Positions 1 to 18,695 of a DNA stretch of 64,000 nucleotides are shown here, piece after piece. This DNA comes from Escherichia coli. Its GTDB lineage: Bacteria; Pseudomonadota; Gammaproteobacteria; Enterobacterales; Enterobacteriaceae. The DNA lies in NCBI RefSeq assembly GCF_050320075.1, contig NZ_CP190018.1. One strand, written 5' to 3'. Within the stretch, counting starts at the first letter, position 1. The number at the start of each line of letters is the position of its first letter. The notes beneath the pieces were generated by a model. That model did no database searches, was not told the origin of the DNA, and saw only the letters and a list, made by a program, of their open reading frames with translations. The position numbers and the translations under genes were made by a program.

Positions 1-183
1 GCCCGCAGGCGCGTATTTACTATGCGGAAATGTTGGCGAAAATGAGTCGGTTACGTGAAGCCAACGAGCAGTATGTTGCCGTGGTTGATACGGCTAAACG
101 CTCAAGACCTCATTATAGAAAACACCACCGGGAATGGATTAAGACCGCCAATGAGCGGCTGAAGCAGAGTGTGGTGCAATGAA
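1..183 (+). CDS. 3' end of an unidentified gene running off the left edge (partial)
   Basis: Frame 3 is open from the window edge to TGA at 181-183 (about 60 codons, ...RIYYAEMLAKMSRLREANEQYVAVVDTAKRSRPHYRKHHREWIKTANERLKQSVVQ); the other two + frames are closed. No family recognised; it does not look like an ABC ATPase C-terminus. Confidence 0.3.
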
Positions 184-404
184 AATCTTCTTTGCCGTTA
201 GACCAGTGTCGCGGCAATCTTTTGTTAAAATTGAAAAATGTAGCTCTCATCGGGCAGCAAAACTGGACGCAGAATTTGCTGCCATTTTTGCTCTTCATGG
301 TAAGGAGTTCTGGCGATTAGCTGGCCGTTAATCGCCTCTTTTCAGTGCATTCTCGGGATATCCGTGCCCCATCTCCCATTTTCCCTCACCCGTACCGTCA
401 CCGC

Positions 405-485
405 CTTGTCATCTTTCTGACACCTTACTATCTTACAAATGTAACAAAAAAGTTATTTTTCTGTAATTCGAGCATGTCATGTTAC
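405..485 (+). promoter_or_regulatory. ugpB promoter region with array of PhoB-box-like heptamers
   Basis: Heptamers resembling CTGTCAT at ~11 bp spacing (ttgtcat 406-412, ctgacac 417-423, tgtaaca 440-446, ctgtaat 461-467, atgtcat 474-480) about 60-130 bp upstream of the ugpB start; the ugp operon is a known Pho regulon member. Confidence 0.5.
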
Positions 486-541
486 CCCGCGAGCATAAAA
501 CGCGTGAATTCGCGCATTCGGTACAACAAGAGAGATAAACG

Positions 542-1858
542 ATGAAACCGTTACATTATACAGCTTCAGCACTGGCGCTCGGACTGGCGTTAATGGGGAA
601 TGCACAGGCAGTGACGACCATTCCGTTCTGGCATTCTATGGAAGGGGAACTGGGTAAAGAGGTGGATTCTCTGGCCCAACGTTTTAACGCCGAAAACCCG
701 GATTACAAAATTGTACCGACCTATAAAGGCAACTACGAACAGAATTTAAGCGCGGGGATTGCCGCATTTCGTACCGGCAACGCGCCTGCTATTTTGCAGG
801 TTTATGAAGTTGGCACCGCCACCATGATGGCGTCGAAAGCCATTAAACCGGTATATGACGTGTTTAAAGAGGCGGGGATTCAGTTCGATGAGTCGCAGTT
901 TGTGCCGACGGTTTCAGGCTACTACTCCGACAGCAAAACCGGCCACTTACTCTCCCAGCCGTTCAACAGCTCGACTCCCGTTCTCTATTACAACAAAGAC
1001 GCCTTCAAGAAAGCCGGTTTAGACCCGGAACAGCCGCCGAAAACCTGGCAGGATCTGGCGGACTATGCCGCAAAACTGAAAGCCTCCGGTATGAAGTGCG
1101 GCTACGCCAGCGGCTGGCAGGGCTGGATCCAACTGGAAAACTTTAGCGCCTGGAACGGTCTGCCGTTTGCCAGCAAAAACAACGGCTTTGACGGCACAGA
1201 CGCGGTGCTGGAGTTCAACAAGCCGGAGCAGGTGAAACACATCGCTATGCTCGAAGAGATGAACAAGAAGGGCGATTTCAGCTACGTCGGGCGTAAGGAT
1301 GAATCCACTGAGAAGTTCTATAACGGTGATTGCGCGATGACCACCGCCTCTTCCGGTTCTCTCGCCAACATTCGCGAGTACGCCAAATTTAACTACGGCG
1401 TAGGCATGATGCCTTACGACGCCGATGCGAAAGATGCGCCACAAAACGCCATTATCGGCGGAGCCAGCTTGTGGGTAATGCAGGGTAAAGATAAAGAAAC
1501 TTATACGGGTGTGGCGAAGTTCCTCGACTTCCTCGCGAAGCCAGAAAACGCTGCCGAGTGGCATCAGAAAACTGGTTATCTGCCAATCACCAAAGCGGCG
1601 TATGACCTGACCCGTGAGCAGGGTTTTTATGAGAAAAACCCAGGGGCGGATACCGCGACGCGTCAGATGCTGAATAAGCCGCCGTTACCGTTCACCAAAG
1701 GGCTGCGTCTGGGCAACATGCCGCAGATCCGCGTGATTGTGGATGAAGAGCTGGAGAGCGTGTGGACCGGTAAGAAGACACCACAGCAGGCGCTGGATAC
1801 CGCCGTTGAGCGTGGGAACCAGTTACTGCGCCGCTTTGAGCAGTCTACGAAGTCTTAA
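542..1858 (+). CDS. ugpB: sn-glycerol-3-phosphate ABC transporter periplasmic binding protein
   Basis: 438 aa ORF with signal peptide ([23 protein letters not shown]); length and sequence match UgpB as recalled; followed by ugpAEC. Confidence 0.96.
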
Positions 1859-1864
1859 TTCTCT

Positions 1865-2010
1865 TACCCTCACCCTAACCCTCTCCCAAAGGGAGAGGGG
1901 ACCGATCGGCGTGGTATCCAGGTGCCGTGTCGGTTTGCAACTTCGCTCGGTGGGAAAGTATGCACCGCCTTTCTCCCTCGCCCCTTTGGGGAGAGGGCCG
2001 GGGTGAGGGG
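1865..2010. repeat. intergenic element with nested inverted repeats between ugpB and ugpA
   Basis: Left unit ccctcaccctaaccctctccc-aaa-gggagagggg (1865-1900) and right unit ccctcgcccctttggggagagggccggggtgagggg (1969-2010); each has a local hairpin and the outer arms are mutually inverted. Confidence 0.5.
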
Positions 2011-2033
2011 AACACAACACGAAGAGTTTAACT

Positions 2034-2921
2034 ATGTCATCATCCCGTCCGGTGTTCCGCTCGCGCTGGCTGCCCTATTTGCTGGTCGCGCCGCAGCTCA
2101 TTATCACCGTTATCTTTTTTATCTGGCCTGCGGGCGAAGCGTTGTGGTACTCGCTGCAAAGCGTCGATCCGTTTGGTTTCTCCAGCCAGTTTGTCGGCCT
2201 GGATAACTTCGTCGCGCTGTTTCATGACAGCTACTATCTCGACTCCTTCTGGACGACGATAAAATTCAGCACCTTTGTCACCGTCAGCGGTTTGCTGGTG
2301 TCGCTGTTCTTTGCGGCGCTGGTGGAGTACATCGTGCGCGGCAGCCGTTTCTATCAAACCTTAATGCTGCTGCCTTACGCCGTGGCACCCGCCGTTGCCG
2401 CCGTATTGTGGATCTTCCTGTTTAACCCTGGTCGCGGGCTGATCACCCATTTTCTCGCTGAGTTCGGCTACGACTGGAACCACGCGCAAAACAGCGGTCA
2501 GGCGATGTTTCTGGTGGTGTTTGCCTCGGTGTGGAAGCAAATTAGCTACAACTTTCTGTTCTTCTATGCCGCGCTGCAATCCATTCCCCGTTCGTTTATC
2601 GAAGCCGCAGCCATCGACGGTGCAGGCCCGATTCGCCGCTTCTTTAAGATTGCGCTGCCGCTTATCGCTCCGGTGAGTTTCTTCCTGCTGGTGGTGAACC
2701 TGGTGTACGCCTTCTTCGACACCTTCCCGGTGATCGACGCCGCCACGTCCGGCGGGCCGGTTCAGGCCACCACGACGCTGATTTATAAGATTTACCGCGA
2801 AGGCTTTACCGGACTGGATCTGGCTTCGTCTGCCGCGCAGTCGGTGGTGTTGATGTTCCTCGTCATCGTGCTGACGGTGGTGCAGTTCCGCTATGTTGAA
2901 AGCAAGGTGCGTTACCAATGA
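2034..2921 (+). CDS. ugpA: sn-glycerol-3-phosphate ABC transporter permease
   Basis: 295 aa multi-TM ORF; position and length match UgpA. Confidence 0.96.
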
Positions 2922-3763
2922 TTGAGAACCGTCCGTGGCTGACAATATTCAGCCATACCATGCTGATCCTCGGGATCGCGGTGATCCTCTTCCCGCTGTA
3001 CGTGGCGTTTGTCGCGGCGACGCTGGATAAACAGGCCGTCTACGCCGCGCCGATGACGCTAATCCCCGGCACACATCTGCTGGAAAACATCCACAACATC
3101 TGGGTGAACGGGGTAGGCACGAATAGTGCGCCTTTCTGGCGGATGTTGCTTAACAGCTTTGTGATGGCGTTCAGCATTACGCTCGGCAAAATTACCGTCT
3201 CGATGCTTTCGGCATTTGCCATTGTCTGGTTTCGTTTTCCGCTACGTAACCTCTTCTTCTGGATGATTTTTATCACTCTGATGTTGCCGGTTGAAGTGCG
3301 TATTTTCCCGACGGTGGAAGTGATCGCCAATCTGAAAATGCTCGACAGCTACGCCGGTTTAACGCTGCCGCTGATGGCCTCGGCGACCGCCACGTTTCTT
3401 TTCCGCCAGTTCTTTATGACGCTGCCGGATGAGCTGGTGGAAGCGGCGCGGATCGACGGTGCGTCACCAATGCGCTTCTTTTGCGACATCGTTTTTCCGC
3501 TCTCCAAAACTAATCTGGCGGCGCTGTTTGTGATCACCTTTATCTACGGCTGGAACCAGTATTTGTGGCCGTTGTTGATTATTACCGATGTGGATCTCGG
3601 CACCACCGTGGCAGGGATTAAAGGGATGATCGCCACTGGCGAAGGCACCACGGAATGGAACTCGGTGATGGCGGCGATGTTGTTAACGCTGATCCCTCCG
3701 GTGGTGATTGTTTTAGTGATGCAGCGTGCCTTTGTGCGCGGCCTGGTCGATAGTGAGAAATAA
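2918..3763 (+). CDS. ugpE: sn-glycerol-3-phosphate ABC transporter permease
   Basis: 281 aa multi-TM ORF; start overlaps ugpA stop (ATGA). Confidence 0.96.
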
Positions 3764-3764
3764 G

Positions 3765-4835
3765 ATGGCAGGACTGAAATTACAGGCAGTAACCAAAAGC
3801 TGGGATGGCAAAACCCAGGTCATTAAACCGCTGACCCTTGATGTGGCGGATGGCGAATTTATCGTGATGGTCGGGCCGTCTGGCTGCGGGAAATCGACGT
3901 TATTGCGAATGGTGGCCGGACTGGAGCGGGTAACGACGGGCGATATCTGGATCGACCGCAAGCGTGTCACCGAAATGGAGCCGAAAGATCGCGGGATTGC
4001 GATGGTGTTCCAGAACTACGCGCTCTATCCGCATATGAGCGTAGAGGAGAATATGGCGTGGGGGCTGAAAATTCGCGGCATGGGCAAGCAACAAATTGCC
4101 GAACGTGTTAAAGAAGCGGCGCGCATTCTGGAGCTGGACGGCCTGCTTAAGCGCCGCCCGCGTGAGTTATCTGGCGGTCAGCGTCAGCGTGTGGCGATGG
4201 GGCGTGCGATTGTGCGTGAGCCGGCAGTGTTCCTGTTTGATGAGCCGCTCTCTAACCTCGATGCCAAGTTGCGTGTGCAGATGCGTCTTGAACTGCAACA
4301 GCTGCACCGTCGCCTGAAAACGACTTCACTCTACGTTACCCACGATCAGGTTGAGGCGATGACGCTCGCCCAGCGAGTAATGGTGATGAACGGCGGCGTT
4401 GCCGAACAGATTGGCACGCCAGTTGAAGTGTACGAAAAGCCCGCCAGCCTGTTTGTGGCGAGTTTTATCGGCAGTCCGGCGATGAATCTGCTGGCAGGGC
4501 GTGTGAATAACGAAGGTACGCATTTCGAACTGGACGGCGGTATCGCGCTGCCGCTAAACGGTGGCTACCGTCAGTATGCTGGACGTAAAATGACTCTCGG
4601 CATTCGCCCGGAACATATTACGCTACGTTCGCAGGCTGAAGGTGGCGTGCCGCTGGTGATGGACACGCTGGAGATCCTCGGCGCAGATAACCTGGCGCAC
4701 GGACGCTGGGGCGAACAGAAGCTGGTGGTGCGACTGGCGCATCAGGAGCGCCCGACGGCAGGCAGCACGCTGTGGCTGCATCTGCCGGAAAATCAGCTGC
4801 ATCTTTTTGATGGTGAAACAGGACAACGAGTATGA
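3765..4835 (+). CDS. ugpC: sn-glycerol-3-phosphate ABC transporter ATP-binding protein
   Basis: 356 aa from ATG 3765 ([13 protein letters not shown]...); Walker [13 protein letters not shown] signature LSGGQRQR; ATG one nt after ugpE stop. Confidence 0.95.
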
Positions 4836-5575
4836 GTAACTGGCCTTATCCCCGCATCGTCGCCCATCGTGGCGGCGGTAAACTGGCCCCGGAGAACACC
4901 CTGGCAGCAATCGACGTCGGGGCAAAATACGGTCATAAGATGATCGAATTTGACGCGAAGTTATCGAAAGATGGCGAGATCTTCCTGCTCCATGACGACA
5001 ATCTTGAACGCACCAGCAACGGCTGGGGCGTCGCGGGCGATCTGAACTGGCAGGATTTACTGCGCGTGGATGCAGGCAGTTGGTACAGCAAAGCGTTTAA
5101 AGGTGAGCCGCTACCGTTGCTTTCGCAGGTGGCGGAACGCTGTCGCGAACACGGGATGATGGCGAATATCGAAATCAAACCCACCACTGGCACCGGGCCA
5201 TTAACGGGCAAAATGGTGGCGCTGGCGGCACGCGAACTGTGGGCCGATATGACGCCGCCGCTGCTGTCATCGTTTGAGATTGATGCTTTAGAAGCTGCAC
5301 AACAGGCTGCACCGGAACTGCCGCGCGGTTTGTTGTTGGATGAGTGGCGCGACGACTGGCGAGAACTGACCGCGCGACTGGGCTGCGTCTCTATTCATCT
5401 CAATCATAAGTTGCTTGATAAAGCGCGAGTGATGCAGTTGAAAGACGCCGGATTACGGATTCTGGTTTATACCGTCAATAAACCCCAGCGCGCGGCAGAG
5501 TTGCTGCGCTGGGGCGTGGATTGCATCTGCACCGATGCGATTGACGTGATTGGTCCGAACTTTACGGCCCAATAG
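4832..5575 (+). CDS. ugpQ: glycerophosphodiester phosphodiesterase
   Basis: 247 aa; start overlaps ugpC stop; length and sequence match UgpQ. Confidence 0.95.
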
Positions 5576-6002
5576 TTTTCAACGGAATATCAGGCTGCGG
5601 CGTGCTGGGCTGATTCAGCATGTCGCCGTTTCTCCTCTCCGGCAACATATGCTGCTGATTCAACGGACTATCCGGATTACGGTTGCTGTTTAACATCCCG
5701 CCGTTGGTGTTGGGCAGCATTTGCTGCCGGGCGGGATTTCGCTCCCCCGGCTGTGACTGCAACACCCGCTGAGAATTATTGTTGATCTGGTTTTCTAAAT
5801 GCTGCTGTTGCAACTGCGTTTGCGTTTTCAGTTGCTGATTCAGCATCCCTTTTTGCTGGATTTGCTGCGTTTGCATTTGAGTCTGCATCCGCTGCTGGCT
5901 GGGGATCTGATATCCCGGCTGGTTGGGGTTGTTCAGAGTATTAATGGGCTGTGCAAAGCCGACAAACGGCAGGAGTGCCGTCAAAAGCAGAAGTCGTTTC
6001 AT
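5562..6002 (-). CDS. yhhA: secreted Gln-rich protein YhhA
   Basis: 146 aa with signal peptide and Q-rich repeats; convergent with ugpQ, 3' ends overlap by 14 nt. Confidence 0.85.
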
Positions 6003-6121
6003 CGCGTATCCTCCTCTGAAGATATTCTTTAAGTTTACTCGCTTCCCGGCAAAACGATGATTAATTCAGAGTTATATACCAGGCTTAGCTGGGGTTGCCC
6101 CTTAATCTCTGGAGAATAACG

Positions 6122-7864
6122 ATGATAAAACCGACGTTTTTACGCCGGGTAGCCATTGCTGCTCTGCTCTCAGGAAGTTGTTTTAGCGCCGCCGCCGCGC
6201 CTCCTCCGCCACCTGTTTCTTATGGCGTGGAGGAAGATGTCTTCCATCCGGTACGCGCGAAACAGGGGATGGTGGCGTCTGTAGATGCTACTGCCACTCA
6301 GGTGGGCGTGGATATCCTCAAGGAGGGCGGGAATGCCGTTGATGCTGCCGTGGCGGTGGGCTACGCGCTGGCGGTAACGCATCCGCAGGCGGGGAATCTG
6401 GGCGGCGGTGGTTTTATGCTGATCCGCTCGAAAAATGGCAATACCACCGCTATCGATTTCCGCGAAATGGCACCCGCCAAAGCGACCCGCGATATGTTCC
6501 TTGATGATCAGGGTAACCCGGACAGCAAAAAATCACTCACTTCGCATCTGGCCTCCGGTACGCCCGGTACGGTAGCAGGTTTCTCGCTGGCGTTGGATAA
6601 ATACGGCACCATGCCGTTGAACAAAGTGGTGCAACCGGCGTTTAAACTGGCACGCGATGGTTTTATCGTTAACGACGCGTTGGCTGACGATCTCAAAACC
6701 TACGGTAGCGAAGTGTTGCCGAATCACGAAAACAGCAAGGCTATCTTCTGGAAAGAGGGCGCGCCGCTGAAAAAGGGCGACAAGCTGGTGCAGGCGAACC
6801 TGGCAAAGAGCCTGGAGATGATTGCCGAAAACGGCCCGGACGAATTCTACAAAGGCACGATAGCGGAACAGATTGCCCAGGAGATGCAGAAAAACGGTGG
6901 CTTGATCACTAAAGAAGATTTAGCGGCGTATAAAGCGGTCGAACGTACACCGATTAGCGGCGATTATCGCGGGTATCAGGTTTACTCCATGCCACCGCCA
7001 TCTTCCGGCGGGATCCATATCGTACAAATCCTCAATATTCTGGAAAACTTCGATATGAAGAAATACGGCTTTGGCAGCGCCGACGCGATGCAAATCATGG
7101 CAGAAGCTGAGAAATATGCCTACGCCGACCGCTCGGAATATCTTGGCGACCCGGATTTTGTCAAAGTTCCGTGGCAGGCGCTGACCAATAAAGCCTATGC
7201 CAAATCTATTGCCGATCAAATCGATATCAATAAAGCGAAGCCATCCAGCGAAATTCGCCCCGGCAAGCTTGCGCCTTATGAGAGTAATCAAACTACCCAT
7301 TACTCAGTGGTGGATAAAGACGGCAACGCGGTAGCGGTGACCTATACGCTGAACACCACCTTCGGGACGGGCATTGTCGCGGGCGAGAGCGGTATTCTGC
7401 TTAATAACCAGATGGATGATTTCTCCGCCAAACCTGGCGTACCGAACGTTTACGGGCTGGTGGGTGGTGACGCCAACGCGGTCGGGCCGAATAAACGCCC
7501 GCTGTCGTCGATGTCCCCAACCATTGTGGTGAAAGACGGTAAAACCTGGTTAGTGACTGGTAGCCCAGGCGGTAGCCGGATCATCACTACCGTGCTGCAA
7601 ATGGTGGTGAACAGCATCGATTATGGTATGAATGTCGCCGAAGCGACCAATGCACCGCGTTTCCACCATCAGTGGTTGCCGGACGAGCTGCGTGTCGAAA
7701 AAGGGTTTAGCCCGGATACGCTCAAGCTGCTGGAAGCAAAAGGTCAGAAAGTGGCGCTGAAAGAGGCGATGGGTAGTACACAAAGCATTATGGTTGGGCC
7801 GGACGGCGAGTTGTACGGCGCATCCGATCCGCGCTCGGTGGATGATTTAACGGCGGGTTATTAA
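6122..7864 (+). CDS. ggt: gamma-glutamyltranspeptidase
   Basis: 580 aa from ATG 6122 (MIKPTFLRRVAIAALLSG...); signal peptide; conserved TTHYSVVD autoprocessing region. Confidence 0.95.
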   Translation: MIKPTFLRRVAIAALLSGSCFSAAAAPPPPPVSYGVEEDVFHPVRAKQGMVASVDATATQVGVDILKEGGNAVDAAVAVGYALAVTHPQAGNLGGGGFMLIRSKNGNTTAIDFREMAPAKATRDMFLDDQGNPDSKKSLTSHLASGTPGTVAGFSLALDKYGTMPLNKVVQPAFKLARDGFIVNDALADDLKTYGSEVLPNHENSKAIFWKEGAPLKKGDKLVQANLAKSLEMIAENGPDEFYKGTIAEQIAQEMQKNGGLITKEDLAAYKAVERTPISGDYRGYQVYSMPPPSSGGIHIVQILNILENFDMKKYGFGSADAMQIMAEAEKYAYADRSEYLGDPDFVKVPWQALTNKAYAKSIADQIDINKAKPSSEIRPGKLAPYESNQTTHYSVVDKDGNAVAVTYTLNTTFGTGIVAGESGILLNNQMDDFSAKPGVPNVYGLVGGDANAVGPNKRPLSSMSPTIVVKDGKTWLVTGSPGGSRIITTVLQMVVNSIDYGMNVAEATNAPRFHHQWLPDELRVEKGFSPDTLKLLEAKGQKVALKEAMGSTQSIMVGPDGELYGASDPRSVDDLTAGY

Positions 7865-7870
7865 GGTTAG

Positions 7871-7900
7871 CGGCCCTCTTCGTGGGAAGAGGGCCGTATT
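7871..7900 (+). terminator. probable rho-independent terminator of ggt
   Basis: Hairpin cggccctcttc-gtgg-gaagagggccg immediately after the ggt stop, followed by tatt. Confidence 0.5.
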
Positions 7901-7929
7901 GTCAGGGCAAGCCGGGTAATGACTCCAAC

Positions 7930-8433
7930 TTACTGATAGTGTTTTATGTTCAGATAATGCCCGATGACTTTGTCATGCAGCTCCACCGATTTTGAGAACG
8001 ACAGTGACTTCCGTCCCAGCCTTGCCAGATGTTGTCTCAGATTCAGGTTATGTCGCTCAATGCGCTGAGTGTAACGCTTGCTGATTACGTGCAGCTTTCC
8101 CTTCAGGCGGGATTCATACAGCGGCCAGCCATCCGTCATCCATACCACGACCTCAAAGGCCGACAGCAGGCTCAGAAGACGCTCCAGTGTGGCCAGAGTG
8201 CGTTCACCGAAGACGTGCGCCACAACCGTCCTCCGTATCCTGTCATACGCGTAAAACAGCCAGCGCTGACGTGATTTAGCACCGACGTAGCCCCACTGTT
8301 CGTCCATTTCAGCGCAGACAATCACATCACTGCCCGGCTGTATGCGCGAGGTTACCGACTGCGGCCTGAGTTTTTTAAGTGACGTAAAATCGTGTTGAGG
8401 CCAACGCCCATAATGCGGGCGGTTGCCCGGCAT
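7930..8433 (-). CDS. insB: IS1 InsB (transposase C-terminal part, made as InsAB' by frameshift)
   Basis: 167 aa ORF in the -1 frame overlapping the insA 3' end; matches IS1 InsB. Confidence 0.92.
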
Positions 8434-8627
8434 CCAACACCATTCATGGCCATATCAATGATTTTCTGGTGTGTACCGGGTTGAGAAGCGGTGTAAGTGA
8501 ACTGCAGTTGCCATGTTTTACGGCAGTGAGAGCAGAGATAGCGCTGATGTCCGGCAGTACTTTTACCGTTACGCACCACGCCTTCAGTAGCTGAGCAGGA
8601 GGGACAACTGATGGAGATGGAAGCCAC
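8352..8627 (-). CDS. insA: IS1 InsA
   Basis: 91 aa [43 protein letters not shown]...; zinc-finger/HTH protein of IS1. Confidence 0.92.
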
Positions 8628-8655
8628 GGGAGCACCTCAAAAACACCATCATACA

Positions 8656-9114
8656 CTAAATCAGTAAGTTGGCACCATTACCGGTATTTGCGATAAGATG
8701 TTGACAGAGGATAAATTCATAACTAACAGTTAATGTTTCTGTATCCAGTTGATTTTCAATGATCTGATGATGAATAGCCGATAAAAAAGCGCCTCTTAGT
8801 TGTATATAATAATACTTTCCCCATCTACCAAATCTATTTATTCGATAGAAGTCAAATTCCATAAATAATTGTTCATTATTGTTAATGGAATTAATAAATA
8901 ATGGAGTGCTTTTATCAATTAATTTACAAAATGTTATACCATGAAACTGTGAACCAAGCCCCGTATTAGTAATACTATTTAAGAATGAGAATGTAAATAT
9001 TTCATCCTCATGCCCGCTCTGCCAGCGATTACCTGTAGACTCAGAAGTCCCACAACCTGCGGAGATGCTTCCTTGTTGTTCTCCCGTTACTGTCAGGTAA
9101 ACAATATTACTCAT
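8656..9114 (-). pseudogene. yhhZ: Hcp-family (type VI secretion tube protein-like) gene truncated by IS1; the last 9 codons and the stop lie inside IS1
   Basis: 152 aa ORF MSNIVYLTVTGEQQGSISAGC...HEDEIFTFSFLNSITNTG...ITFCKLIDKSTPLF has Hcp-type motifs; the reading frame crosses the IS1 boundary at 8682 and stops at 8656; AT-rich. The yhhZ symbol is by position, from memory. Confidence 0.65.
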
Positions 9115-9349
9115 CCATGAAAAGTCCTTTTATGGCATGCTATTTTATCAATGGCACTATTATGCTTGTTAATTGTTATTTATTTACTCCAGGAAATTGT
9201 AGGCGTATATATTAAAAAATAAAATATTACACTTTAGGACGTAATTATGAGGTAAATCTTATATATTTATTGGGAAAATAAATACATTAAAAGAAGGTAT
9301 GCCGATTTTGAATGACACCCTTTTTCCATCTCAGAAAAAGGGCACTATC

Positions 9350-9838
9350 TTACTTCACCCGCGCCATATAATACGCATCGACATATTCACCATTACGTAA
9401 TGCGTACTTCTTGCCAGTCCCTTCAATCTCAAATCCAAATTTTTTATAGACTTTAATTGCTGGCGCGTTATCGATGAACACCGTTAGCTCAATACGATCT
9501 ACCCGCAACCAGTTGTCGCACATTTCAATCATCTCTCGCATCAGGGCGCTGGCGACGCCGCGATTCTTCCAACGGGAGTCGACACAAATACCAAAATCTG
9601 CAACATGACTGCGGCGTGGGCGCTGTTGCACGTCAATGGTGAGATGGCCCACGACGTCTCCATCAATACAGGCGACGAGTTGCTTGATGCCGGGACGATC
9701 GGCGAGTCGCTCCTGCCACATATGATCGGAAGGATGAGGCACCTGTAGCGTGTTGCAATACACCTCCGGCTGGGCGTGAATCTGCCTGATGGCCTCGTAA
9801 TCGCGCGTTTCAGCATGGCGTATCACTATCTCACTCAT
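9350..9838 (-). CDS. yhhY: GNAT-family N-acetyltransferase
   Basis: 162 aa from ATG at 9838 (MSEIVIRHAETRDYEAIRQIH...); GNAT motif region RGVASALMREMIE. Confidence 0.9.
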   Translation of the reverse strand: MSEIVIRHAETRDYEAIRQIHAQPEVYCNTLQVPHPSDHMWQERLADRPGIKQLVACIDGDVVGHLTIDVQQRPRRSHVADFGICVDSRWKNRGVASALMREMIEMCDNWLRVDRIELTVFIDNAPAIKVYKKFGFEIEGTGKKYALRNGEYVDAYYMARVK

Positions 9839-9919
9839 TCCTTTGTCCTCTTTGGGGTAAATGTCCCTTTCAACATCATTGACTTTCAAATGCGAGTCAA
9901 ATGCATTTTTTTTGCAAAA

Positions 9920-9960
9920 AGTGTTGGACAAGTGCGAATGAGAATGATTATTATTGTCTT
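9920..9960 (+). promoter_or_regulatory. ryhB promoter with Fur box
   Basis: gcgaatgagaatgattattattg (about 9934-9956) matches the Fur-box consensus (gataatgataatcattatc) and overlaps the -10 region directly upstream of the ryhB start. Confidence 0.65.
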
Positions 9961-10050
9961 GCGATCAGGAAGACCCTCGCGGAGAACCTGAAAGCACGAC
10001 ATTGCTCACATTGCTTCCAGTATTACTTAGCCAGCCGGGTGCTGGCTTTT
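9961..10050 (+). ncRNA. ryhB: Fur-repressed small RNA RyhB
   Basis: Sequence gcgatcaggaagaccctcgcggagaacctgaaagcacgacattgctcacattgcttccagtattacttagccagccgggtgctggctttt matches RyhB as I recall it, ending in a terminator hairpin gccagccgggtgctggc plus T-run; sits between divergent yhhY and yhhX as in K-12. Confidence 0.9.
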
Positions 10051-10172
10051 TTTTTGATCTTTCGTTTTCAATTTATCCACGGGAAGTGCTTGTGTTCGTT
10101 ATGCGCACTCCAGTAGGAACCACGTCCGCTTTGCGCTAAGGTGTAAATAATCACCTTAAAAAGGACGAAATC

Positions 10173-11210
10173 ATGGTCATCAACTGCGCCTTTATTGGCT
10201 TCGGCAAAAGCACCACCCGTTACCATCTGCCGTATGTACTTAACCGCAAGGATAGCTGGCATGTCGCGCATATTTTTCGCCGCCATGCGAAGCCGGAAGA
10301 ACAGGCCCCCATTTACTCTCATATCCATTTCACCAGCGATCTCGACGAAGTACTAAACGATCCCGATGTTAAGCTGGTTGTGGTCTGCACCCATGCAGAC
10401 AGCCACTTCGAGTACGCGAAGCGCGCGCTGGAAGCCGGGAAAAATGTGCTGGTCGAAAAACCGTTCACCCCGACGCTTGCCCAGGCGAAGGAGCTGTTTG
10501 CGCTGGCGAAAAGCAAAGGACTGACCGTCACGCCGTATCAGAATCGTCGTTTTGATTCCTGCTTCCTGACAGCGAAAAAAGCGATTGAAAGTGGCAAGTT
10601 GGGAGAGATTGTCGAAGTGGAAAGCCATTTTGACTATTACCGCCCGGTGGCAGAAACCAAACCTGGGCTGCCGCAGGATGGCGCGTTCTATGGTCTTGGT
10701 GTGCATACGATGGACCAGATTATTTCTCTGTTCGGTCGCCCGGATCACGTCGCTTATGACATCCGCAGCCTGCGTAATAAAGCCAATCCTGACGACACCT
10801 TTGAAGCGCAGCTGTTTTATGGCGACCTGAAAGCCATCGTCAAAACCAGCCATCTGGTGAAAATCGATTATCCGAAATTTATCGTTCACGGTAAGAAAGG
10901 TTCGTTTATTAAATACGGTATCGACCAGCAGGAAACCAGCCTCAAGGCTAATATTATGCCGGGCGAACCGGGATTCGCAGCGGATGATTCGGTCGGTGTG
11001 CTGGAGTATGTCAATGACGAGGGTGTGACGGTCAGAGAAGAGATGAAGCCGGAGATGGGCGATTACGGGCGCGTTTATGATGCGTTGTATCAAACCATCA
11101 CCAACGGTGCGCCAAATTACGTCAAGGAATCTGAAGTTCTTACCAATCTGGAAATCCTTGAACGAGGATTTGAGCAAGCCTCTCCCTCCACAGTGACTCT
11201 CGCGAAGTAA
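10173..11210 (+). CDS. yhhX: Gfo/Idh/MocA-family oxidoreductase
   Basis: 345 aa; N-terminal Rossmann motif AFIGFGKS; length matches YhhX. Confidence 0.9.
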   Translation: MVINCAFIGFGKSTTRYHLPYVLNRKDSWHVAHIFRRHAKPEEQAPIYSHIHFTSDLDEVLNDPDVKLVVVCTHADSHFEYAKRALEAGKNVLVEKPFTPTLAQAKELFALAKSKGLTVTPYQNRRFDSCFLTAKKAIESGKLGEIVEVESHFDYYRPVAETKPGLPQDGAFYGLGVHTMDQIISLFGRPDHVAYDIRSLRNKANPDDTFEAQLFYGDLKAIVKTSHLVKIDYPKFIVHGKKGSFIKYGIDQQETSLKANIMPGEPGFAADDSVGVLEYVNDEGVTVREEMKPEMGDYGRVYDALYQTITNGAPNYVKESEVLTNLEILERGFEQASPSTVTLAK

Positions 11211-15396: not shown

Positions 15397-17493
15397 ATGG
15401 AAAAGCACGGAGCTGAATTGCTTTTACAGCGGATGTTAGGAAATACCACCGCTACTTTCAGGGAAGGGCAATGGGAAGCCATAGATGCAGTGGTTAATCA
15501 GCGGCGAAAACTGCTGGTTGTACAGCGCACCGGCTGGGGGAAAAGTGCCGTGTACTTCATCGCCAGTAAAATCTTCCGCGATCGCGGCGCTGGCCCGACA
15601 ATTATCATCTCTCCTTTGCTTGCCCTGATGCGTAACCAGGTTGCCGCCGCTGAACGGTTAGGTATTACGGCTGAAACGTTGAATTCTACAAACAGGGAAG
15701 AATGGCAGCGCATTAGCGATAAGTTGCTGCAAGGTGAGGTCGATTGCTTGCTGGTTTCCCCGGAACGTTTGGCAAACCAGGACTTTATCGAAACGGTTTT
15801 ATATCCTATAGCCGATCGTATTGGCTTGCTTGTGGTCGACGAGGCGCACTGCATCTCTGATTGGGGCCACGATTTTCGCCCGGATTACCGACGTATATTA
15901 GATATTTTGCGCCAACTGCCTGCGAATACCCCTGTTCTGGGTACAACCGCGACAGCGAATAACCGTGTTGTTGAGGATATCCGTCAGCAATTGGGTGACA
16001 TTGTGATTCAGCGTGGAACGCTGGCTCGCGAAAGTTTGGCGCTTGATGCCTTAGTCTTAGGAGAACAGTCATCCCGTCTGGCATGGTTAGCAACGGTTAT
16101 CCCTCAGTTTTCCAAATCGGGAATTGTTTATACCCTGACGACTCGCGATGCTGAACTTGTCGCCGAGTGGTTAAGGAAAAATGGTATCAGTGCATTTGCT
16201 TACTACAGCGGCGTGACTTGTGAAGGCGCGGAAGATTCTAATACTGCCAGGGAATATCTGGAGCAGGCACTGCTGGCAAATAAAATCAAAGTGCTGGTCG
16301 CGACGACGGCATTAGGTATGGGGTTTGATAAACCTGATTTAGGTTTCGTCATTCATTATCAGATGCCGGGGTCTATTGTCGGTTACTACCAACAGGTGGG
16401 GCGTGCCGGGCGTGCTATAGATTCCGCAGTTGGCATATTGCTTTGTGGTGGTGAAGACCGCGCTATTCATCAATTCTTCCGTGAAAGCGCCTTTCCTGCG
16501 GAGGCGCAAATTCATGAAATACTCAACGTACTTAGCGAGAATGACGGTCTTACCCTACGAGGCATTGAACAACGGACGAATCTTCGTTATGGGCAAATAG
16601 AAAAAGCACTGAAATTATTGGTAGCGGAAAATCCATCGCCTGTGGTGTATACCGAGAAATTATGGCGCAGAACTATCGTCAGTTTTTCTCCTGATCATGA
16701 ACGAATTAACCATTTGATGAATCAGAGAAAAAGTGAACTGGCAGACGTTGAAAGCTATATCACGACCAAGGAGTGCAAAATGCAATTTCTGCGCCGTGCA
16801 CTCGATGAGCCAAGTGCCGAACGTTGTGGTAAATGTAGCAGTTGTCTTCAGCATCCGTTATTGTCGCCCGACATTGATAGCGGCTTACTCCATGCGGCAA
16901 ATTTATTTATTAAACACGCTGACCTGCCGTTAAATCTCAATAAACAGGTGGCAGCTGGGGCTTTTACGCAATACGGATTTAAAGGGAACTTGCCTGCGGG
17001 TTTACAAGGATCTACGGGGCGAATCCTTTCTCGTTGGGGAGATTCCGGGTGGGGAAAGCAGGTAGCACAGGAGAAAAAAACGGGGCGCTTAAGTGATGAG
17101 CTGGTAGAAGCATGTGCGGAAATGGTTCGCCAACGCTGGAATCCGCATCCTGAACCAACCTGGGTATGCTGCGTTCCTTCATTAAGGCACCTCGACCTGG
17201 TTCCTGATTTTGCCCGGCGACTGGCGGCGAAACTTGGCTTACCTTTTATTGATGCCATTGAAAAAGTCGTGGACAATCCACCGCAGAAAATGCAGCAAAA
17301 CCGTTTTCACCAGTGTCAAAATCTCGACGGGGCGTTTGTGATTACCCCTCCTTTGATGCCAGGTCCGGCGTTGCTGGTTGACGATATCGTGGATTCTGCA
17401 TGGACGCTGACAGTTCTGACAGCACTGTTACGCCAGGCAGGTTGCCCGACGGTTTATCCTCTTGCCCTTGCTTCTACCTCGGTAAAAAATTGA
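15397..17493 (+). CDS. RecQ-family DEAH helicase with C-terminal CxxC and phosphoribosyltransferase-like domain (PsyrT/RqlH-like candidate toxin or effector)
   Basis: 698 aa; Walker A QRTGWGKSAV, DEAH box VVDEAHCISDWGHDFRPDYRR, helicase-C motif YQQVGRAGR, then CGKCSSC and a PRTase-type nucleotide loop LLVDDIVDSAWT near the C-terminus; SD gcaggag upstream of the ATG. Confidence 0.85.
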   Translation: MEKHGAELLLQRMLGNTTATFREGQWEAIDAVVNQRRKLLVVQRTGWGKSAVYFIASKIFRDRGAGPTIIISPLLALMRNQVAAAERLGITAETLNSTNREEWQRISDKLLQGEVDCLLVSPERLANQDFIETVLYPIADRIGLLVVDEAHCISDWGHDFRPDYRRILDILRQLPANTPVLGTTATANNRVVEDIRQQLGDIVIQRGTLARESLALDALVLGEQSSRLAWLATVIPQFSKSGIVYTLTTRDAELVAEWLRKNGISAFAYYSGVTCEGAEDSNTAREYLEQALLANKIKVLVATTALGMGFDKPDLGFVIHYQMPGSIVGYYQQVGRAGRAIDSAVGILLCGGEDRAIHQFFRESAFPAEAQIHEILNVLSENDGLTLRGIEQRTNLRYGQIEKALKLLVAENPSPVVYTEKLWRRTIVSFSPDHERINHLMNQRKSELADVESYITTKECKMQFLRRALDEPSAERCGKCSSCLQHPLLSPDIDSGLLHAANLFIKHADLPLNLNKQVAAGAFTQYGFKGNLPAGLQGSTGRILSRWGDSGWGKQVAQEKKTGRLSDELVEACAEMVRQRWNPHPEPTWVCCVPSLRHLDLVPDFARRLAAKLGLPFIDAIEKVVDNPPQKMQQNRFHQCQNLDGAFVITPPLMPGPALLVDDIVDSAWTLTVLTALLRQAGCPTVYPLALASTSVKN

Positions 17494-18695
17494 TGAATCT
17501 TTCAGCCAATGCACAAGCGACTCTCCTGCTAACCAGCGATTTTTCTCGCGCGGCGGCGAGTGAGTATAAACCTCTTAGTAATAGTGAATGGGGGAAGTTT
17601 GCATTATGGCTGAAGCACCAACGTATCAGTCCCGCCGATCTTCTGGTGCCGCAACCGCAAGAGAAACTTACAGGCTGGAGCGATCCGCGTATTTCTCAGG
17701 AGCGTATTCTTGGCTTGCTGGCGCGTGGTCATAGTCTGGCGTTGGCGGTAGATAAGTGGCAACGCGCCGGTTTATGGATCTTAACCCGCGGAGATGCCGA
17801 TTATCCCGTTCGCTTGAAAAACCGATTGCGAACGGATGCACCTCCCGTTTTATTTGGCTGCGGGAATAAAGCATTACTGCAAGCGGAAGGTATGGCGATT
17901 GTTGGCTCGCGAGATGCTCCGACTGCCGATTTGCGCTATACCCAACAACTGGCAGCGAAACTGGCCCAACAGGGGATTTGCGTTATCTCTGGTGGTGCGC
18001 GAGGTATTGATGAATGTGCAATAGCGTCGGCGCTGGAGGCCGGAGGAACTGCCGTTGGCGTATTAGCTGATAGCTTGTTAAAAACGAGCACGTTAGTGAA
18101 ATGGCGTGAAGGGCTTATAGCAGGCAACCTGGTGTTGATTTCACCGTTTTACCCAGAGGTACGTTTCACCGTCGGCAATGCGATGGCGCGGAATAAATAT
18201 ATTTATTGCCTTGCTGAAAGCGCAATGGTTGTACGTGCGGGAATGACCGGTGGAACGATAACCGGAGCGATGGAGGCGTTAAAACATCAGTGGCTGCCTG
18301 TTCTGGTTAAACCAAATCAGGATGTGCAATCAGCCAATTCACGATTAGTAGAAAATGGGGCGTCATGGAGTGCTGAACAGGCTGAGAATGTGACGATCAG
18401 ACTGCCAGACGTTCCTGGGCTGATGTATGACAGAGCACTCCGTAACGCTCAACCAGAATTGTTTTCGCTGCACGAAGATGACGCAAATTACGCAGTGATG
18501 CCCTCGCATACCCCTGTCGATTTTTATCAACTTTTTGTGGCGGAACTGGCGATCCTTGCAAAGGAATCGATAAGTATTGAAAGGCTGGCGTCTTGTACTG
18601 GTTTAACCATCGAACAAATTAGTATGTGGCTGAACCGCGCAGAAGAAGAGGGAAGGGTTATCCGATTGGGCGAAGGTCATTATCAGTTCAGGTAA
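17493..18695 (+). CDS. DprA/Smf-like Rossmann-fold protein (PsyrA/RqlI-like candidate antitoxin or partner)
   Basis: 400 aa from ATG 17493 (MNLSANAQATLLL...); DprA signature VISGGARGIDECAIASALEAGGTAVGVLADSL and NAMARNKYIYCLAESAMVV; the ATG overlaps the helicase TGA by one nt. Confidence 0.8.
   Translation: MNLSANAQATLLLTSDFSRAAASEYKPLSNSEWGKFALWLKHQRISPADLLVPQPQEKLTGWSDPRISQERILGLLARGHSLALAVDKWQRAGLWILTRGDADYPVRLKNRLRTDAPPVLFGCGNKALLQAEGMAIVGSRDAPTADLRYTQQLAAKLAQQGICVISGGARGIDECAIASALEAGGTAVGVLADSLLKTSTLVKWREGLIAGNLVLISPFYPEVRFTVGNAMARNKYIYCLAESAMVVRAGMTGGTITGAMEALKHQWLPVLVKPNQDVQSANSRLVENGASWSAEQAENVTIRLPDVPGLMYDRALRNAQPELFSLHEDDANYAVMPSHTPVDFYQLFVAELAILAKESISIERLASCTGLTIEQISMWLNRAEEEGRVIRLGEGHYQFR

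Follow-up and report, generated by a model that had tools for sequence, protein, structure and literature searches.

What gene stands immediately upstream of ugpB in this strain of Escherichia coli? The DNA analysed here, called the window throughout, is a stretch of 64,000 nt from contig NZ_CP190018.1 (assembly GCF_050320075.1), and it opens on a reading frame that is cut by its left edge and stops short of ugpB. An earlier note on this DNA expected livF at this place from the arrangement in K-12, found the product unlike the C-terminus of an ABC ATPase and proposed either another gene between livF and ugpB or a chance open frame in the ugpB regulatory region. Its premise is sound: livF is the immediate upstream neighbour of ugpB in MG1655, across a 398-bp intergenic region. 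We conclude, with a probability of about 0.9, that the frame is the 3' end of an accessory E. coli gene of 248 codons, located between livF and ugpB, which encodes a membrane-anchored tetratricopeptide repeat (TPR) protein.

The frame occupies window 3–182 in frame 3 of the plus strand and has 59 sense codons, translated as PQARIYYAEMLAKMSRLREANEQYVAVVDTAKRSRPHYRKHHREWIKTANERLKQSVVQ*, with its TGA stop at 180–182. The earlier note had the run from edge to stop right and the stop itself, given as 181–183, one base off. Both fragments of the peptide that it quoted are contained in the translation, and no other frame is open in 1–183, as it said, the remaining five of the six each holding between two and six stops. 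By base composition alone, 59 open codons arise with p ~0.07 per frame; openness of this length is within chance and is weak evidence. The significance of the frame comes from homology and from its pattern of substitution, not from its being open.

The full gene can be read from genomes that are collinear with the window. A search with window 1–10200, which includes a strain-specific insertion sequence (IS) junction with IS1, found YZLc1-3 and Ec-U3 to be 100% identical in a single aligned piece. The annotation of YZLc1-3 gives livF, 118 bp, an intact 248-aa TPR gene whose last 59 codons are window 3–182, and then ugpB; another gene between livF and ugpB was therefore correctly suspected. CFSAN061763 is 100% identical over window 1–541, and its annotation makes the frame the end of a 747-nt coding sequence, WP_000558842.1, ‘tetratricopeptide repeat protein’. 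In the collinear genomes the gene starts 118 bp after the livF stop, that is, 565 nt upstream of the window, which holds codons 190–248 and the stop. The same gene is ECs_4300 of O157:H7 Sakai, between livF (ECs_4301) and ugpB (ECs_4299), in a 1041-bp segment that is 99.7% identical; there is no difference of substance from Sakai, and the window allele is identical to those of CFSAN061763 and YZLc1-3. Hundreds of public genomes already have the gene annotated, and its presence is ordinary strain-to-strain variation in gene content.

Homologs extend well beyond Escherichia. Full-length proteins of ~245 aa are found in Citrobacter (67–77% identity), Pseudomonas (41–44%), Exilibacterium (37%) and many metagenomes; the Citrobacter orthologs stand at 75–77%, and Pseudomonas, Exilibacterium and the metagenomes together span 31–44%. 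For E. fergusonii there is a record of a protein with 94% identity, known by sequence and not by locus. A profile search of 1.84 billion representatives returned 678 clusters (at 50% identity) with E<=1e-30, almost all of which align over their full length, and this count is a lower bound for the size of the family. Named members come from Xanthomonas and Steroidobacteraceae; those looked up are called only ‘tetratricopeptide repeat protein’ or ‘hypothetical’. Compared with C. freundii, the full gene differs at 47, 30 and 139 sites in codon positions 1, 2 and 3, with a proportion of non-synonymous differences (pN) of 0.141 and of synonymous differences (pS) of 0.804 (pN/pS 0.18). The last 60 codons, which lie in the window, follow the same pattern against Citrobacter (13, 11 and 40 differences; pN 0.20, pS 0.92). 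Between E. coli alleles pN/pS is 0.10–0.12, and all five alleles that were translated are intact, four of 248 aa and one of 249 aa. These substitution patterns clearly point to purifying selection on the TPR gene.

The protein matches TPR_19 (38.7 bits, cut-off 25) and TPR_2 (29.8 bits, cut-off 27) of Pfam above the curated cut-offs, and all 107 of the 107 family members match TPR_14 and TPR_19. AlphaFold2, given the 107-sequence alignment, returns an all-helical model with a predicted local distance difference test score (pLDDT) of 95.6 and a predicted template modelling score (pTM) of 0.84. Helices 2–19 and 25–51 form a hairpin, paired helices run from 71 to 222 and capping helices continue to 247; the part encoded in the window contributes helices 191–202, 206–222, 225–230 and 232–247. 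The hairpin is PLDc_N-like. PF13396 is matched by 62 of the 107 family members at E<=0.01 (best 4.7e-7), and there is a weak match to TIGR04265 of NCBIfam (residues 31–55). Within the two hydrophobic segments H16 and Y41 are invariant and W26, P34, G37 and P48 nearly so, and in the TPR part an NPDFxSADGHLLYAR motif is strongly conserved. In the predicted architecture a PLDc_N-like membrane hairpin of two helices stands at the N-terminus and a TPR solenoid comes after it, and this combination recurs in Escherichia, Citrobacter, Pseudomonas, Xanthomonas, Steroidobacteraceae and many metagenomes. Mean lysine plus arginine counts across the family are 0.06 in the N-terminal tail, 2.2 in the loop and 4.1 after helix 2, and because of these counts a topology with both termini, and hence the TPR domain, in the cytoplasm is mildly favoured. 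In our preferred reading this is a small inner-membrane protein whose PLDc_N-type hairpin would tether a TPR scaffold to the membrane, where the scaffold could bind a putative partner. Since polar, near-invariant residues (H16, Y41 and W26) lie inside the hairpin, it might be more than an anchor and, for instance, act as a sensor or binding site for a lipid or a membrane partner. We regard this as a doubtful extension; if true, these proteins would make up a new membrane-associated regulatory module, an accessory one in E. coli that O157:H7 carries.

The features at the left end of the window are as follows, from the TPR gene to ugpB.

1..182, plus strand: 3' end of the TPR gene, read in frame from base 3 and encoding the final pair of TPR helices and the capping helices at the C-terminus (from translation, 100% identity and AlphaFold2)
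183..358, no strand: 176-bp spacer, found in genomes with the TPR segment only, without counterpart in K-12 or C. freundii
179..331, plus strand: open reading frame (ORF) of 50 aa from the ORF list, overlapping the TPR stop (ATGA)
312..336, plus strand: terminator-like hairpin with a 10-bp stem and a 5-nt loop, followed by TCTTTTCAGT
359..541, plus strand: ugpB upstream region, common to the window, K-12 and Citrobacter locus types
542..1858, plus strand: ugpB, 438 aa, the downstream neighbour (from the ORF and the annotation of collinear genomes)

A megablast search of window 1–541 against 5426 complete E. coli genomes gave matches in 5424, and the whole query was covered in only 640; the remaining genomes, K-12 MG1655 included, match window 359–541 only. 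The segment that differs from K-12 measures 1041 bp, made up of the 118-bp spacer, the 747-nt gene and the 176-bp spacer; its first base follows the livF stop directly and its last is window 358. Of the 5426 genomes, 659 (~12%) carry it, at 660 places that are all chromosomal, and 658 of these 659 carriers cover at least 80% of it. The K-12-type junction, with 215 bp of unrelated sequence in place of the segment, is found in 4630 genomes. With a median of 11 matching places per genome, this K-12 spacer contains repeated sequence; our own reading is that it is of the repetitive extragenic palindromic (REP) or bacterial interspersed mosaic element (BIME) type. No relic of the TPR gene was found in it, only chance matches of 8–20 nt. 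The 176-bp spacer is single copy in 640 genomes, at least 99% identical in 636 of those, and no genome has it without also matching the TPR segment. It matches neither the K-12 spacer nor the Citrobacter sequence downstream of its TPR gene, and Rfam models run on window 1–2100 gave no relevant family and none in this spacer. Junctions were set from megablast and blastn coordinates, as a MAFFT global alignment with K-12 smeared the unrelated spacers.

A third arrangement is found in C. freundii (CP055551.1), where an ortholog (75% aa identity) stands directly after livF in the same orientation and is followed by four extra genes and then ugpB. From window 359 to the ugpB ATG the identity to K-12 is 98.4%, and from window 364 the ugpB upstream region is 84% identical to C. 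freundii. Since homology between the three locus types resumes at nearly one point, the livF–ugpB interval reads as a variable slot, immediately followed by ~183 bp of conserved ugpB control region. The four extra genes of C. freundii are two small hypothetical genes (93 and 135 aa) and a PhdYeFM-antitoxin/Fic-type pair. In E. coli Br_112_kylling (NZ_CP182371.1, 1036037–1037920) the TPR segment is matched in two pieces, and the annotation places an IS4-like ISVsa5 transposase between or next to them. The 50-aa ORF at 179–331 is annotated as hypothetical protein WP_001302354.1 in some RefSeq genomes, for example that of strain CD45; it has no Pfam match, its sequence is not conserved in Citrobacter or outside E. 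coli, and it is probably an over-annotation.

Could the frame nonetheless be a chance ORF in the ugpB regulatory region, as the earlier note allowed? The p of ~0.07 would let it pass, but in every collinear genome the frame continues for 189 codons further upstream, up to an ATG, so that it neither closes a short distance 5' nor lacks relatives: the 248-codon gene has full-length homologs across Gammaproteobacteria, its substitutions are biased to third positions, and its product is confidently modelled as a TPR fold. The conserved ugpB upstream region, moreover, begins only at window 359. The probability left to a chance frame is negligible. That the frame is simply the 3' end of livF can be dismissed outright; livF is a separate coding sequence, not continuous with the frame, that ends 118 bp upstream of the TPR gene start, and the product has no match to ABC_tran in Pfam. 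Another reading takes the E. coli gene for a remnant in decay that no longer functions. It is dispensable, being absent from 88% of genomes, its Shine-Dalgarno spacing as read from the E. coli sequence is long, and partial or IS-interrupted copies exist in a few genomes. Against these stand the coverage of at least 80% of the segment in all carriers but one, the intact translated alleles and the low pN/pS within E. coli, and we consider decay very improbable.

Several observations weigh against a membrane-anchored TPR protein gene as we describe it. A literature search by locus tags returned nothing on the gene, and we found no named characterised homolog of the protein and no experiment on it. 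In the E. coli protein itself PF13396 scores 20.0 bits over residues 26–44 (E = 6.9e-4), under the gathering cut-off of 23.3. The membrane orientation is ambiguous, as the loop and the segment after the hairpin are both positively charged. Gene neighbourhoods in six lineages (C. freundii, Pseudomonas, Exilibacterium and three metagenomic ones) are unrelated to one another, and context therefore gives no functional hint. A scan for sigma-70 promoters called none convincing in the 118-bp livF–TPR spacer, and read-through from liv is possible. Finally, the TPR gene has a pS of 0.80 against Citrobacter and a GC content at third codon positions (GC3) of 0.54, compared with a pS of 0.47–0.58 and a GC3 of 0.65–0.74 for its flanks, for which reason horizontal acquisition is kept possible and strictly vertical descent is unproven.

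As to expression, a hairpin lies directly after the livF stop (−21.6 kcal/mol, z = −5.6), and Citrobacter has a hairpin of different sequence at the same place after livF. The terminator scan found the hairpin at window 312–336 (RNA fold −19.5 kcal/mol, z = −3.5). Lying 130 nt beyond the TPR stop and before the ugpB promoter region, this hairpin with its T-run probably terminates the transcript of the TPR gene. These two signals suggest a monocistronic TPR unit that would be insulated from liv and ugp. A block of the spacer conserved with Citrobacter, ACAGACTTGTTTCA...CCAGGAGG, is a candidate for its promoter. Taken with the predicted fold, the gene likely encodes an independently transcribed, inner-membrane-tethered TPR scaffold.

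Downstream, a passage of a review (PMC4415409, citing Kasahara et al. 1991) describes two promoters of ugp, the upstream one dependent on cAMP-CRP and the downstream one containing several PHO boxes. A strict 18-mer Pho-box consensus with up to three mismatches had no match in the window, and a CRP-site pattern was no commoner than chance, with one two-mismatch site at window 407–422. Within the operon the ugpB–ugpA intergenic region (window 1859–2017) is 175 bp long and carries a pair of 42-nt inverted GC-rich units of the CCCTCTCCCAAAGGGAGAGGGG type. The corresponding K-12 spacer is 97 bp, with a different palindromic sequence that we read as REP-like, and this spacer appears to be a second repeat-element polymorphism, inside the ugp operon.

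How did the gene come to be present in some lineages and absent from most? The earlier note spoke of a gene inserted here; its presence stands, and insertion may be the wrong direction, loss or replacement in the K-12 state being more likely. An old resident gene, lost or replaced by a repeat-bearing spacer in most E. coli lineages, is suggested by the occupation of the same slot in Citrobacter, by deeply diverged E. coli alleles and by the want of a mobility signature. Alleles within E. coli differ by a pS of ~0.19, and the livF 3' end to which they are linked is as diverged as they are; the spacer and the ugpB side, by contrast, are nearly identical. Because of this contrast, window 1–541 together with ~1.4 kb upstream reads as a recombination mosaic with a breakpoint near the TPR stop codon. 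The strains CD45, KE55 and O145 RM8843-C1 differ from the window allele by 4–5% in the livF 3' end and by 5.4–5.8% in the TPR gene; their 176-bp spacer, ugpB promoter and ugpB 5' end differ by 0–3 bases each.

Recent horizontal insertion into the livF–ugpB spacer of some lineages is the main alternative to an old resident. It would fit the carriage of the gene by only 12% of genomes, the low GC3 and high synonymous divergence relative to the flanking core genes, and a slot that is clearly variable, four further genes, a Phd/Fic-type pair included, having found a place there in Citrobacter. It fits less well with the position and orientation directly after livF in C. freundii, with the 94%-identical E. 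fergusonii protein (a sequence record alone), or with an allelic divergence shared with the adjacent livF end, which speaks for long residence and exchange by homologous recombination. Nor was there a sign of mobile-element cargo: no junction repeats in the K-12 alignment, no adjacent transposase or integrase and no plasmid copies, phage and plasmid collections not having been searched separately. We judge recent insertion unlikely, though far from negligible, and prefer an old resident gene.

Two further loci in the window deserve a word. Between gntU and yhgN (window 15397–18695, plus strand) lie a RecQ-like helicase of 698 aa and, overlapping it, a DprA/SLOG protein of 431 aa, which match PsyrT (1064 bits) and PsyrA (E = 4.6e-200) in PADLOC as a PsyrTA-type toxin–antitoxin/defence pair, also annotated in CFSAN061763. 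At ~7915–9114 (minus strand) an IS1 transposase ORF (7930–8433) occupies the place where CFSAN061763 has yrhB, yrhD and yrhA, and the adjoining Hcp/tssD gene is cut to a 152-aa fragment, a partial pseudogene in the YZLc1-3 annotation. This looks like an IS1-associated deletion in a small cluster related to the type VI secretion system.

The ‘unexpected’ frame is thus strain variation from K-12, made conspicuous by a window edge that cuts a known accessory gene, and matters little beyond correct annotation. K-12 has a repeat-bearing spacer in the slot, the window has the TPR gene, and Citrobacter has the TPR gene with four more. The family is widespread and functionally uncharacterised, and makes a modest target for the study of membrane TPR adaptors.

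The protein was also compared with known systems. None of the PADLOC-DB models of anti-phage defence matched it (0 families at E<=0.001). Its similarity to YfgM and CpoB (YbgF), E. coli envelope TPR proteins, is generic to TPR folds: TIGR02795 of CpoB scores 31.6 bits against an equivalog cut-off of 90.1, no YfgM-type model in Pfam or NCBIfam was matched, and the HemY-type TIGR00540 scores 16.8 bits against 142. LapB (YciM), which we take to be an E. coli inner-membrane TPR adaptor with its TPR domain at the cytoplasmic face, acting as a scaffold, is alike in general architecture, having an N-terminal membrane anchor and a TPR domain. The TPR protein is much shorter, however, and its anchor is a two-helix PLDc_N-type hairpin, whereas that of LapB is a single helix. 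The LapB model is not among the NCBIfam matches at E<=1, and the C-terminal 59 residues contain no cysteine for a rubredoxin-type metal site as in LapB. The hairpin resembles the PLDc_N region of the cardiolipin synthase ClsA, a two-helix hydrophobic hairpin with the same conserved W...P..G...Y signature; a topology with both termini in the cytoplasm would presumably match that of the ClsA hairpin. In ClsA the hairpin is followed by phospholipase-D catalytic domains; in the protein described here these are absent, and a TPR domain stands in their place.
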